A DNA stretch of 64,000 nt from Promethearchaeota archaeon (GTDB lineage Archaea > Asgardarchaeota > Lokiarchaeia > Sigyniarchaeales > SOKP01). The DNA lies in assembly GCA_030599585.1 (NCBI GenBank), contig JAUVNS010000001.1, positions 347,118 to 411,117 on the forward strand. The letters run 5' to 3'. Numbering within the stretch: the stretch's first letter is position 1; each line of letters starts with the position of its first letter. Of this stretch, positions 7,472 through 24,233 are shown piece after piece. A program made the translations under genes and the position numbers. The notes under the pieces are model-generated. The model was not told where the DNA came from, ran no database searches, and saw only the letters and a program-made list of their open reading frames with translations.

Positions 7472-7487
7472 ATGAATAATCATTCTT
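7472..7487. promoter_or_regulatory. Palindromic operator copy 1 (ATGAATAATCATTCTT)
   Basis: Downstream of TATA-like TATATAAG (about 7453), upstream of the OsmC gene; one of six copies. Confidence 0.65.
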
Positions 7488-7511
7488 AATTTAAAAAAAT
7501 ATAGACAAAAA

Positions 7512-8021
7512 GTGAAAAAAATGCCAAGCTTTAAAGAAACATATGAAGCAATAAAAGAAGATTGGAGCAAAGGGGAAAAGAATTTCAACATTGAGTGCGA
7601 GATGTTATCGGAAGGTATGCAAGTTAAATGTACAATGGGAGCAAAGCCTTTTGAAATGATAATCGACGCGCCTCTAGGCTTAGATGGAACAAATGAAGGA
7701 CCATCTCCACTACTCGTTATTTTAGCCTCAATAGGCGCATGTATAGTTGCAGTTACGAAATTTTGGGCTAAGATTATGGACATAAATATCACAGAATTGA
7801 AAGTATTTTCTCGTGGTCATATTAATCTAGGAGCTATATTTGGTCTCGACGATAGTAAACTTGCGGGTTACGATAAACTCGAACCTGTTGTCAGGATTAA
7901 AGCAGACGCCCCCAAAGAAAAAATAGAGGAATTGATGGAAAAAGTATTTTCTCATTGTCCAGTCATAACGAATTTGGGTGGAGCTTCACCTATTACTCCA
8001 AAACTCCAAATAAGAGAATAA
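7512..8021 (+). CDS. OsmC/Ohr-family protein
   Basis: D.P...G...GPSP, LASIGAC and HCPV two-Cys pattern. Confidence 0.85.
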   Translation: MKKMPSFKETYEAIKEDWSKGEKNFNIECEMLSEGMQVKCTMGAKPFEMIIDAPLGLDGTNEGPSPLLVILASIGACIVAVTKFWAKIMDINITELKVFSRGHINLGAIFGLDDSKLAGYDKLEPVVRIKADAPKEKIEELMEKVFSHCPVITNLGGASPITPKLQIRE

Positions 8022-8082
8022 GTTATATACTATTCTTTGTTTTTTTTAATTTTTTGTTTTCTCTTTTTAAGACTGAATTTCT

Positions 8083-8937
8083 TTAGCGTAGAGGGTATTT
8101 AGGATCTCTCTTTCCAAAAAACGCAGCAGAGGCTTCGTTCACATCTTTGGAACTGAAAGTAAGCACGATACTAGAGTTTTCCAATTGACAAATTGTCTCT
8201 AAACTTGGAGAATCAAGAGTTAAATTTAACGATTGTTTAGTCATTCGCAAACCTAACGGACTCTTCCTTAGCATCTCGTCTGCTAACTCCAACCCAGATT
8301 CTAACAGATCTTTTGACCCAACAGATTTTAAAGCTAATCCAATTTTAACCGATTCTTCAGCCCCGACTTGCCTTCCGGTGTACATTATCTCAGAAGCTCT
8401 CGATAATCCTATTAAGCGAGGAAGAAAATAACTTCCGCCTACATCAGCTCCCGTTAACCCAATATTAATTGAAGCGTTAATAAACTTAACATCAGCACCT
8501 ACAATTCGTATATCTGAAGCCATAGCAAAGCCAAATCCACCTCCTGCAGCTGCACCGTGAACTAAAGCGATAATTGGTTGGCTTATCTTGCGCATCTTTA
8601 TAAAGATCGAACTAATTCGCCACTGATGGTACATTTTTTTTTTAATCGGTTCTGAAACATTTAGAAAATAATATTTTTCGTATCCTTCAGGTTTCTTTTT
8701 AGTGTTTAAGATCAATGCCTCCTGTAAATCAGTTCCCGCACAGAATGCCCTTCCCTCAGCTCTTAAAATTACCACACGACAATCTAAATTTACCATTAGA
8801 TGATCGAATACCTCGTGTAATTCCTTTTCCATTTGGAAGTTAATAGCATTCAATTTTTCCGGACGATTTAAGGAAAGAATTCCAATTCCATTTTCCTTTA
8901 ATTCAAATTTAATAGTCTCAAAATTCACTTTTATCAC
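8083..8937 (-). CDS. Enoyl-CoA hydratase/isomerase (crotonase)
   Basis: LNRPEKLNA, FCAGTDL, GAAAGGG, ASDIR. Confidence 0.9.
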   Translation of the reverse strand: MIKVNFETIKFELKENGIGILSLNRPEKLNAINFQMEKELHEVFDHLMVNLDCRVVILRAEGRAFCAGTDLQEALILNTKKKPEGYEKYYFLNVSEPIKKKMYHQWRISSIFIKMRKISQPIIALVHGAAAGGGFGFAMASDIRIVGADVKFINASINIGLTGADVGGSYFLPRLIGLSRASEIMYTGRQVGAEESVKIGLALKSVGSKDLLESGLELADEMLRKSPLGLRMTKQSLNLTLDSPSLETICQLENSSIVLTFSSKDVNEASAAFFGKRDPKYPLR

Positions 8938-9012
8938 TTTTTTTAATAATGTAATAAAACCACTTTTGAATTTATAATTTAGGACTGTGCTTAAGCTCGG
9001 GATTTAACAATT

Positions 9013-9792
9013 TCAAAGTAATAAAGAACTTAAGGTCTTTTTAGCTAGAGTAAATAAAGTATGCAGATGTTCCTCAGTTAAATGAAAGTGAAGCTCCCAA
9101 TTTTCTTCAGTCAAATAATCGCTAATAGTAAAAATTGCCCCTGCTTCGATGTTTAAACACTTTGCAATCACAAATATAGCAGAAGCTTCCATTTCAACCG
9201 TCAATACGCCTTCATCGCGGTAATGTTTTAATTCAGCTAAAGATTCACGATAAGGTGCGTCAGTCGTCCAACTTGTTCCCGTGTGATAATTTAGGTTCAT
9301 ATCTTTAGCTATTTCGATCAATTTATCAGTCAAGCCACTAGAGGGATGTGAGTACTTCTCGCTTAATGCGTAATGATGCGAAGTTCCCTCGTCTCTAATT
9401 GCTCTCGTGCAGATAATGGTACTACCTAATTGAAGATTTCTTTGTAGAGATCCAGCAGTCCCTATTGAAACAAATGATTTAATACCAAAAGCGTTGAGTT
9501 CTTCCAAGAGAATCCCAACAATTGGAGCTCCGATTCCAAAAGTTCCACAAAGTGCAATTTTTTTGTTAGAATCGTTTAAAAGATAAAAATCCTTTCCAAA
9601 AACATTGTCAACTTTAGTAAGAGAATAATTTTCTACGATGTAATTTAGGATTGTCGGGGAATAACAAATGATTACTCCTTTTGGAGGCTCGATATCCGGA
9701 TATACCCCAAGTTCTTTCTTATACTTCCAGAAATCTACAGCTTGAACAACAGCTCTCTCACGATGTTTATTTGGAAAATTTGGAAATGTCAT
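9013..9792 (-). CDS. Nucleoside phosphorylase (PNP/UDP family)
   Basis: GIGAP, GTAGSL, RDEGTS, TTDAPYRE, VEMEAS. Confidence 0.9.
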   Translation of the reverse strand: MTFPNFPNKHRERAVVQAVDFWKYKKELGVYPDIEPPKGVIICYSPTILNYIVENYSLTKVDNVFGKDFYLLNDSNKKIALCGTFGIGAPIVGILLEELNAFGIKSFVSIGTAGSLQRNLQLGSTIICTRAIRDEGTSHHYALSEKYSHPSSGLTDKLIEIAKDMNLNYHTGTSWTTDAPYRESLAELKHYRDEGVLTVEMEASAIFVIAKCLNIEAGAIFTISDYLTEENWELHFHLTEEHLHTLFTLAKKTLSSLLL

Positions 9793-9860
9793 ATTTGTTT
9801 TAACGATCTAAAGAATTTGAAACTTTTTGAAAAGGCTAGCTCGTACAAAAATTAGATAGG

Positions 9861-22414: not shown

Positions 22415-22441
22415 AAATTAAAATAAAAAATTATAAAAAAA

Positions 22442-23314
22442 TTATTTTTCTAATTCTTCTCTTATTTTAGATACAGCTGCTTTAAAAGCCTTAGTGCTTG
22501 CGCTCTCAGGATATTTTAATATAAATGGTAATCCCTTATCTCCTTGTTGACTAACTTCGACTTCAAAAGGAATTTGTCCTAAAAAGGTTATATTAAAATC
22601 TTTGGAGGCCTTTTCTGCGCCACCAGGAGGATAAAGATCAATATATTCGCTACAATGAGGGCATTTAAAACCAGACATATTTTCAATTATCCCAAGGACA
22701 TGTCTTTTCATTGTTTTTGCCATTACAATTGTCTTTCGAGCGTCCATAAGCGCAACTTCTTGCGGTGTGGATACAACAACTACATTTTCGTCTGGAATTA
22801 GTTGCAGTATATCAAGAGTTTCATCAGATGTGCCAGGAGGTAAATCACAGATTAAGTAATCAAGGTCTCCCCATATTGCTTCTCCTAAAAATTGTCTTAC
22901 TGCTGACATTTTCATTGGACCTCGCCAAATTACTGGAGTATCGCTATCTTGTATCAGAAAGGCCATACTAACGACTTTCGTTTTTAAAGGACCTTCAACG
23001 GGATAGAACTTCTTTGCGTCGGGGTCAACTCGAGGTCTAACATTAGGGTCAATACCTAACATCTTAGTTACATTAGGCCCCGTTATGTCTACATCCAATA
23101 TCCCTACGCGTAAACCCACACTTGCTAAACTCATTGCAAGGTTTACTGCTACAGTTGTTTTACCAACGCCTCCCTTCCCTGATATGACCACGATCTTATG
23201 TTTTATTTTAGCCATATTTTCATTAATATTCAGCGTTTGCTGGTCCAGTACCTCTTCCTTTCCTTTGTTTACCATTTCTTTTAAATCTATATCGGGTATT
23301 TTATCTTCTCCCAT
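22442..23314 (-). CDS. mrp: Mrp/ApbC/NBP35 Fe-S carrier ATPase
   Basis: SGKGGVGKTT, WRGP, DLPPGTSD, ENMS, CPHC. Confidence 0.95.
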   Translation of the reverse strand: MGEDKIPDIDLKEMVNKGKEEVLDQQTLNINENMAKIKHKIVVISGKGGVGKTTVAVNLAMSLASVGLRVGILDVDITGPNVTKMLGIDPNVRPRVDPDAKKFYPVEGPLKTKVVSMAFLIQDSDTPVIWRGPMKMSAVRQFLGEAIWGDLDYLICDLPPGTSDETLDILQLIPDENVVVVSTPQEVALMDARKTIVMAKTMKRHVLGIIENMSGFKCPHCSEYIDLYPPGGAEKASKDFNITFLGQIPFEVEVSQQGDKGLPFILKYPESASTKAFKAAVSKIREELEK

Positions 23315-23490
23315 AATTCATTCACTTTTTCAATTGATTTTAACTATTAATTTCTTTAATTTATGCTTATGATTTTAGATATACAATTATTCCCTTTAAT
23401 TTATCGTTAATATTTTGAAAAGGCTTACGTGCTTTCAATTATATTTCAGTTCAATTTATCAAGATTTAATTATAAAATCTAAATCATTTT

Positions 23491-23506
23491 ATGAATAATT
23501 ATTCTT
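23491..23506. promoter_or_regulatory. Palindromic operator copy 5 (ATGAATAATTATTCTT)
   Basis: In the divergent mrp / NifX intergenic region. Confidence 0.6.
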
Positions 23507-23683
23507 TATTAAATAATTTTTCCCTCATAATATTTAAGGAATTGGCATAGAAATTTATTTGGAATCTGAGGTTGAATATATAGTTGAATATATAATAATT
23601 TTTTAAATTTTTAGTTAATTATTCAAGTTAGTTAAGTATAAATCAAATTATGTTTAAGAATAGTATATAGAGGTTACACTAAA

Positions 23684-24070
23684 ATGGAAATAATAGCAAT
23701 ACCGACTTTTAGGGATGGGGGATTAAATGAAAAAGTCCACCCCAAATTTGGAATGTGCGAGAGTTTTACTTTCATTACATTAGATAATAATGAAATTACG
23801 CAAGTTAAAGTAATTGAAAATTCTGCGGCTGAAGAAACTCGAAGTAGAGGAACTTTGGCAGCTAAAATTGTTAGAAATAATGGCGCCGAAAAGTTGATTG
23901 TTAAGAAGTTGGGGCCAAATGCTTCCAGGGCACTAAACTCAGTAAAGGTTAAAACATACCAATCTCCTGATGGAAGCATACTCGTAAAAGATTTAGTAGC
24001 TCTTTACTCAAAGGGAAAATTAAAAATAACTCCGGCAGAAGATCTTATATTTGATAAAGATTTAGCGTAA
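23684..24070 (+). CDS. NifB/NifX-family protein
   Basis: VHPKFGMCESF, LGPNA; close paralog of 24293-24733. Confidence 0.85.
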   Translation: MEIIAIPTFRDGGLNEKVHPKFGMCESFTFITLDNNEITQVKVIENSAAEETRSRGTLAAKIVRNNGAEKLIVKKLGPNASRALNSVKVKTYQSPDGSILVKDLVALYSKGKLKITPAEDLIFDKDLA

Positions 24071-24217
24071 ACTCTAATCCTTTGTGGAATTTTTATAGAG
24101 TGCTCCTTTTTTTTAAATCAGAAACTAATAAATTGCATTTTTAAGAAAACAAGTTGGTAATCCTTCTGAGTTTTACGAAGAATGTTTATAAGTTATTTGT
24201 TCTTCGTGATAATTATT

Positions 24218-24233
24218 TAGAATAATTATTCAT
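24218..24233. promoter_or_regulatory. Palindromic operator copy 6 (TAGAATAATTATTCAT)
   Basis: Downstream of TTTATAAG (24185), upstream of 24293. Confidence 0.65.

Follow-up and report, generated by a model that had tools for sequence, protein, structure and literature searches.

We analysed a 64,000-nucleotide stretch of a Promethearchaeota genome (the window; C20:347118-411117 of genome G000, which comprises 4.85 Mb in 52 contigs with 32.6% G+C) that carries six copies of a GAAT-N4-ATTC palindrome. Sequence comparison indicates that these palindromes are genuine conserved regulatory sites before iron-sulfur-handling genes, that they mark a regulon recurring across Promethearchaeota genomes with the same gene families despite shuffled gene order, and that their predicted reader is probably the genome's single DUF134 (PF02001) protein, which is encoded outside the window. 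The palindromes had been reported earlier in a note on this DNA (hereafter the original prediction), which ascribed them to one repressor of an iron-sulfur and sulfur regulon. They lie where that note placed them, with the letters it quoted, the 12-mers beginning at 7474, 16160, 17615, 21979, 23493, and 24220; all six are intergenic on the open reading frame map of the window (6/6), and Pfam agrees with the genes assigned next to them, namely OsmC, the NifX-NifU-radical SAM-TrmO run, DUF5320-DtxR, NifX, Mrp/NifX, and NifX followed by a COG1149 pair. The motif had not been noticed in other promoters of the window, and this held true when an 18-nt weight matrix was built from the six window sites, which score 19.1-22.2 bits against 7.2 for the next best window position.

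Taken alone, the bare GAAT-N4-ATTC pattern falls short of significance in the window (8 matches versus 3.7 expected, with 7 of 100 shuffles reaching 8), and this count, together with the 25% G+C of the intergenic DNA of the genome, is what could be cited for reading the palindromes as chance matches or selfish repeats in A+T-rich spacers, devoid of any regulatory role. The two further matches in the window, at 8877 and 13132, are intragenic, depart from the extended motif, and contain G+C in their spacers; the six sites, on the other hand, share an A/T-rich spacer and T...A flanks beyond the bare pattern. The narrower pattern GAAT[AG][AC]T[CT]ATTC has 12 matches in the whole genome, half of which (6) fall within a 17-kb stretch (7.4-24.2 kb of the window), a clustering that speaks against chance. 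Scanned over all intergenic DNA of the genome against a third-order Markov model of that DNA, the matrix returned 11 matches of at least 16 bits, the six training sites included, where the model predicts 0.97; this tenfold excess is also hard to square with chance, and the 5 non-training matches compare with about 1 expected. At a threshold of at least 12 bits, 31 matches were found versus 9.8 expected. Run genome-wide, as the original prediction had proposed, the scan puts the motif above background frequency. The sites and genes concerned are given below, site coordinates starting from the first base of the 12-mer.

7474..7485, putative operator site 1 (TATGAATAATCATTCTTA), 22.2 bits, 35 nt before the conserved ATG (7521) of the OsmC gene.
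7512..8021, plus strand, OsmC-like peroxiredoxin gene (Pfam OsmC), a predicted regulon member with a conserved site upstream.
13670..16123, minus strand, NifX1 operon: NifX-like (15710-16123), NifU_N (15186-15629), radical SAM (14183-15115), and TrmO_N-like (13670-14161) genes, as identified by Pfam.
16160..16171, putative operator site 2, 20.9 bits, 36 nt upstream of the minus-strand NifX1-NifU-radical SAM-TrmO-like operon, which starts with TTG.
17615..17626, putative operator site 3, 19.9 bits, 63 nt before the DUF5320 gene, with more ATTC half-sites directly downstream.
17690..18067, plus strand, DUF5320 gene (Pfam DUF5320).
18125..18532, plus strand, DtxR/MntR-family gene, 135 residues (Pfam Fe_dep_repress N- and C-terminal domains).
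21979..21990, putative operator site 4, 19.1 bits, 34 nt before NifX2 (22025-22414).
23493..23504, putative operator site 5, 20.7 bits, between the divergent Mrp (22442-23314, minus strand) and NifX3 (23684-24070, plus strand) genes.
24220..24231, putative operator site 6, 20.3 bits, 61 nt before NifX4 (24293-24733).
24790-26627, two COG1149 MinD/ferredoxin genes behind NifX4 and site 6.

Site 2 has an extra half-site (GAATGATT) 3 nt away, and site 5 sits at the exact centre of the 369-bp Mrp/NifX3 spacer (23315-23683), 178-179 nt from each start. This operator-to-start distance far exceeds that seen in relatives (21-132 nt), and an unannotated small gene or long leaders may exist there. The listed OsmC reading frame begins with GTG at 7512; the ATG at 7521, which matches the conserved MPSF N-terminus of orthologs, is the likelier start.

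Conservation upstream of orthologs had been set by the original prediction as a test of its own claim, and because the motif is conserved before orthologs in many related genomes, that test fails to refute it. We refer to the family of this genome as f1, to the neighbouring family as f2, and to another Asgard family as f7. Across relatives the consensus is TTATGAATAATTATTCATAA, with the core TGAAT-N4-ATTCA; the six window copies form a palindrome of 14-20 bases. Over 13 twenty-kb neighbourhoods taken from several genera and differing in gene order, the sites track the same units despite shuffling, namely DUF5320-DtxR, the divergent Mrp(-NifU-radical SAM)/NifX-COG1149-COG1149 arrangement, NifX1, NifX2(-OsmC), and a small CxxC protein. 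For example, the motif stands before DUF5320 in nearly all orthologous DUF5320-DtxR loci (DtxR-like orthologs of at least 51% identity), often as two sites 60-61 bp apart, and a single site separates the divergent Mrp and NifX-like genes in 8 of the 13 neighbourhoods. Sites accompany NifX1 orthologs in 7 of the 13 neighbourhoods examined, occur with NifX2 orthologs in relatives as well, and lie 16-90 nt upstream of about 14 of 30 OsmC orthologs in f1. In f2, including the closed genome of Ca. Harpocratesius repetitus, the perfect palindrome precedes DUF5320, OsmC (the Ca. Harpocratesius gene being that of G011, L090), and feoA, and the 100% complete genome G012 has sites before DUF5320-NifX and Mrp. 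The relatives' loci hold 77 distinct sites of at least 15 bits, 74 of them intergenic. That one shared operator joins the four NifX-like paralogs, Mrp, NifU-radical SAM, the COG1149 pair, DUF5320-DtxR, and the distant OsmC gene, as had been proposed for this window, is borne out by these conserved sites. Outside f1, f2, and f7, raw pattern counts per genome are a misleading proxy for the regulon: the exact-pattern excesses of f19, f21, and f25 genomes, which might be held up as instances of chance, proved to be coding or unflanked matches and not operators, so that neither the "DtxR-less" f21 genomes nor the "DUF134-less" G111 carry weight in the search for a reader. An exact 16-mer scan of prokaryote genomes gave mostly chance matches in bacteria among the matches listed, and among these, regulon genes were nearby only at Asgard loci and at one locus of an uncultured archaeon. 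The persistence of sites before the same gene families across many genera and several taxonomic families, even where genes were rearranged, together with their almost exclusively intergenic location and a fixed 6-nt spacing to a TATA-like box (see below), already contradicts an origin by chance or selfish repetition, which we regard as scarcely credible.

Two sites elsewhere in the genome are as strong as those of the window. The first falls between a tusA-yeeE operon and a hydrogenase-small-subunit-like gene, in their spacer on the same contig as the window, and is joined by a weaker one 95 nt before tusA (C20:49336 and 49206); the Pfam families at this locus are TusA, Sulf_transp, and Oxidored_q6, and the sites are conserved in 5 of 10 relatives having tusA-yeeE, which lends support to the sulfur part of the proposed regulon. 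Behind tusA-yeeE (C20:47830-48861 and downstream, L141), three conserved small genes of about 120, 114, and 99 residues are found in all relatives and might be DsrE/F/H-like. The second site stands 43 nt (C26:115645) before the gene of a 63-residue CxxC...CxxC protein. This gene (C26:115410-115601; L003:1911-2102, minus strand) has no Pfam match and is among the most consistently motif-controlled genes across genera. Weaker sites occur before a metallo-beta-lactamase-fold gene and an FAD-binding oxidase gene, and sites also precede the homologs of both in other genera.

The protein that we predict to read the palindrome combines a helix-turn-helix of the sigma-70-region-4/DeoR type with a four-cysteine zinc-ribbon-like domain at the C-terminus, the latter being present in f1-type DUF134 proteins and lacking in the f7 and Thorarchaeota forms. 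The Pfam model finds one DUF134 match in G000 (C40:203326-203592, 72 bits versus a cut-off of 27) and none in the 64-kb window. Among 61 genomes of the order, 55 yielded a DUF134 protein, as did 99 of 121 in the phylum sample; when public genomes were searched with a DUF134 alignment, the best 80 loci were all from Promethearchaeota, the closest with 91-94% protein identity. DUF134 and the operator are associated across lineages. In f7, 12 of 14 genomes carry the exact 12-mer 52-87 nt upstream of a DUF134 gene, with only 2-8 matches per genome, and at two loci (L379 and L385) the site heads a DUF134-109aa-NifX-COG1149 operon. Similarly, the exact 16-mer precedes a DUF134-NifX-NifX-COG1149-COG1149 operon in a Thorarchaeota metagenome-assembled genome (MAG; L306) and DUF5320-DUF134 in an uncultured archaeon (L298), and in the f1 genera g2 and g6 a site stands before DUF134 or a NifX1-DUF134 operon. 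In G000 and its same-genus relatives, the DUF134 start is preceded at 9-53 nt by a degenerate site that retains one intact half, TGAATAA (in G000 at 22 nt, with 8.5 bits). The recognition helix of DUF134, SQ(P/S)(T/S)(F/Y)SR, is nearly invariant in the f1, f2, f7, and Thorarchaeota proteins alongside identical motifs, which fits an invariant operator, whereas DtxR recognition helices differ between clades. DUF134 would bind the palindrome as a dimer.

Several observations weigh against DUF134 as the reader. The assignment draws on co-occurrence, and the match of its helix-turn-helix to the DNA-binding domain of Bacillus subtilis DeoR (7bhy) is weak (E 0.028 over 39 residues). There is no strong site within 1.5 kb of DUF134 in G000 and its genus, in genus g4, or in most f2 genomes. 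Two genomes, G033 and G003, keep DUF134 with no enrichment of the motif, the Mrp and DUF5320 targets also being lacking there, and in two others, G023 and G045, which are both incomplete MAGs, DUF134 was not found though the motif and DtxR are present. Two further points tell against DUF134 by favouring the DtxR/MntR-like protein encoded at 18125, which, as a metal-dependent and autoregulated repressor of the iron-sulfur island, could itself read the palindrome: its gene is the second of a motif-controlled operon, inside the island, at nearly every orthologous locus found, and the motif precedes feoA (G011 and G042) or the gene of an iron-type ATP-binding cassette (ABC) binding protein (G032) in some genomes, which an iron-sensing DtxR would explain naturally.

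This DtxR-like protein, whose best PDB matches are MntR-type repressors, keeps the equivalents of the DtxR primary-site ligands Cys102, Glu105, and His106; its clade retains (C/S)C-x-IEH and is without equivalents of DtxR His79/Glu83 and MntR Glu11. It was the reader first favoured and was downgraded after a phylum-wide comparison. Window-type DtxR orthologs (at least 50% identity) were found only in f1, whereas the identical motif is also present in f2, in f7, and in the MAG from Thorarchaeota; it is DUF5320 that is the conserved target, its site being kept where no DtxR gene follows (G011 L082, G012 L128, and L298), and in G012 sites are present although window-type DtxR was not found. DtxR recognition-helix positions vary among orthologs as well as between clades while the motif stays constant, and the feoAB genes of G000 are without such a site. 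The suggestion in the original prediction that the motif is unlike a classical DtxR box agrees with the one DtxR-family box compared, that of Haloferax TroR (TTTAGGC-N3-CCTAAA; PMC10783522), which differs from TGAAT-N4-ATTCA. We therefore consider recognition by the 18125 protein quite unlikely; its gene is probably a co-transcribed member of the regulon and less likely its reader. In f2, the sole DtxR homolog, 33-43% identical, is a canonical protein with the full ligand set and is encoded in a different operon with no site upstream. A protein-query search for DtxR missed divergent homologs in the closed f7 genomes G101 and G130, which the Pfam model found elsewhere on the chromosome, so that these genomes are not DtxR-free. 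The window genome also encodes a DtxR paralog (C24:354657-355037), which like the f2 single-copy protein retains the histidine; a gene of about 252 residues invariably comes next, and the GAAT palindrome is absent upstream.

Since neither DUF134 nor window-type DtxR fits every genome, the palindrome could also be read by another or an additional factor, such as a paralogous or canonical DtxR (f2 possesses one of the latter), an Lrp/AsnC protein, the 95-residue winged-helix protein encoded at 602-889 of the window, or two factors sharing overlapping sites. The palindromes recognised by Lrp/AsnC regulators are A+T-rich and of the TGAAA-N3-TTTCA type, and in G011 the DUF5320 gene has an AsnC-type gene as its convergent neighbour, an arrangement that was however observed in a single genus. 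No recurrent positional link joins the motif to any of these other candidates: the canonical and paralogous DtxR genes have no site upstream, and BLAST found no homolog of the 602-889 protein near the sites in any neighbourhood of the relatives. We regard such a factor as unlikely. Fur was also considered as a reader and rejected, since searches of G000, G032, and G043, all of which have the motif, found no gene of the Fur family; its absence from G000 had been counted in favour of the DtxR-like protein. The original prediction had left the regulator open and put forward the 18125 and 602-889 proteins for binding assays, and the evidence points away from both and toward DUF134.

With regard to the mode of control, a single fixed geometry between TATA box and operator was sought, and two classes emerged instead. 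In class A, a TATA-like YTTWWAW starts on the gene side exactly 6 nt beyond the end of the core, as seen in 14 of 51 single-gene sites versus 3 on the far side; NifX4 is the member in the window, with CTTAAAT beginning 6 nt after the core of site 6. At this spacing, the flank of the palindrome would cover the position of the B recognition element (BRE). Class B sites, those of NifX1, NifX2, and probably OsmC in the window, overlie the expected start at 15-30 nt downstream of a TATA-like box. The original placement of most operators 10-30 nt downstream of a TATA box fits the OsmC, NifX1, and NifX2 sites; at NifX4, the site is 6 nt upstream of the TATA-like box. Both positions may occur in tandem, since in relatives the DUF5320 and OsmC promoters show a class A site and, about 60 bp on, another that lies just past the expected start. 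Leaders carrying a Shine-Dalgarno-like element at -15 to -11 are found for most genes of the genome, which favours leadered readings of these promoters. The apparent overlap of the sites with core promoter elements makes repression the likely mode of control: as each site would abut BRE/TATA or cover the expected start, a bound factor would block recruitment of TFB/TBP or of RNA polymerase, and by analogy both positions are those of archaeal repressors acting in this way. A TFB gene is present in the genome, whose 16S gene agrees with the archaeal SSU model and which belongs to a Loki-type Asgard archaeon. On the other side, class A sites may serve activation, and the case for repression is made from site position in DNA of 75% A+T, where TATA-like sequences are common.

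Together, these data suggest a model in which one transcription factor would use the six palindromes as operators of a dispersed iron-sulfur and metallocluster-handling regulon. In the window, this would comprise four NifX/IssA-like proteins, Mrp/NBP35, NifU, a radical SAM enzyme, two COG1149 MinD-ferredoxins, DUF5320, the DtxR-like protein, and OsmC, and elsewhere in the genome tusA-yeeE and the small CxxC protein. A logical regulator would be one that senses iron-sulfur or sulfide status, and the four-cysteine tail of f1-type DUF134 is a candidate sensor; this role stays speculative because the f7 and Thorarchaeota forms lack the tail. The DtxR-like 18125 protein may add a second metal-dependent layer. 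Taken jointly, DUF134 could be a metal- or cluster-sensing repressor that acts through one invariant palindrome, its tail reporting iron-sulfur or sulfide status, and that coordinates the assembly and storage of ORP/NifX-type metalloclusters across Asgard archaea, with the embedded DtxR-like protein as a subordinate second metal layer; we put this forward tentatively, as a possible rather than a probable reading of the whole.

Several features of this arrangement resemble known systems. B. subtilis DeoR, of the DeoR subclass of the SorC family, binds the palindrome TTGAACAAAATTCAA with TTGAA/TTCAA halves at the dra-nupC-pdp operator (PMC11229326; PDB 7bhy and 8r7y). Both proteins have a small sigma-70-region-4-type helix-turn-helix with similar recognition helices (SRPTVSRLL in DeoR and SQPTFSRIL in DUF134), and DeoR binds as a dimer to an A+T-rich palindrome whose TGAA half-site is similar to that of TGAAT-N4-ATTCA, to which DUF134 binding is predicted; DeoR is moreover a repressor whose operator overlaps the promoter. 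DeoR differs in being bacterial, in forming tetramers, and in carrying a large sugar-phosphate-binding SorC domain, whereas DUF134 has a short four-cysteine zinc-ribbon-like tail or, in f7 and the Thorarchaeota MAG, none, and would act on an archaeal TBP/TFB promoter. In the orp system of Desulfovibrio vulgaris, Orp3 and Orp4 correspond to COG1149-type MinD-ferredoxins, and the orange protein to the small NifX-like proteins. The orp operons likewise combine Mrp/NBP35 with further predicted metal-binding proteins in divergent co-regulated operons (PMC6345978). They are however activated from sigma-54 promoters by a dedicated enhancer-binding protein, whereas here the palindrome lies in archaeal core promoters, and the Asgard regulon is larger than the orp set, extending to OsmC, NifU, radical SAM, tusA-yeeE, and DtxR. 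The TroR regulon of Haloferax volcanii (PMC10783522) offers an archaeal parallel, with a palindromic operator near archaeal promoters, repeated sites, and metal-related genes; likeness to archaeal DtxR regulons also extends to the presence of feoA in some relatives and of a DtxR-family gene inside the regulon, but the distribution of the motif does not follow the DtxR clade. With regard to function, IssA/NifX-domain proteins have been implicated in iron-sulfur storage (PMC5524996 and PMC8351635), and several targets share the IPR003731/NifX-type domain with Pyrococcus furiosus IssA, which serves thioferrate storage (PMC5524996). The N-terminal 65 residues of DUF5320 are rich in Gly, Arg, Tyr, and Trp with a single Cys and are followed by a Pro-rich stretch and then a coiled coil; this cationic, glycine- and aromatic-rich, one-cysteine segment has the chemistry described for the thioferrate-binding tail of IssA (PMC5524996). 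The difference is that the tail-like segment here sits on a separate coiled-coil protein beside four tail-less NifX-domain paralogs. The regulator of issA was not identified in PMC5524996.

An operator-repressor regulon is a known kind of system; its pairing of DUF134 with this gene set in Asgard archaea is undescribed as far as the literature searched shows, and the same search found no paper on DUF134 function and no mapped start sites for Loki-type archaea, whose gene control, as in Asgard archaea generally, is essentially unmapped by experiment. The present work offers a precise conserved operator, a defined iron-sulfur and metallocluster target set (NifX/IssA-like, Mrp, COG1149, and DUF5320), and two named candidate readers, and it argues against annotating such an island as "DtxR-regulated" merely from an adjoining DtxR-like gene. 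Should DUF134 prove to be the sensor-repressor envisaged above, a regulator-operator-regulon triple would for the first time have been defined in the closest archaeal relatives of eukaryotes, and a widespread family without an assigned function would receive one.

The surroundings of the DUF134 genes themselves provide some minor observations. In G000, the gene is followed by that of a 369-residue protein with 4Fe-4S ferredoxin domains (C40:203326-206270; L138), and in other genera DUF134 adjoins a second COG1149-NifX-NifU cluster that has no palindrome. In the f7 genome G130 (L385), two further genes lie upstream of the motif-controlled DUF134 operon, at 2570-3001 and 3039-3392; they are a divergent second DUF134-like gene, whose product has a Gly/Arg-rich N-terminus, and a gene for a DUF5320-like Gly/Tyr/Arg-rich coiled-coil protein.

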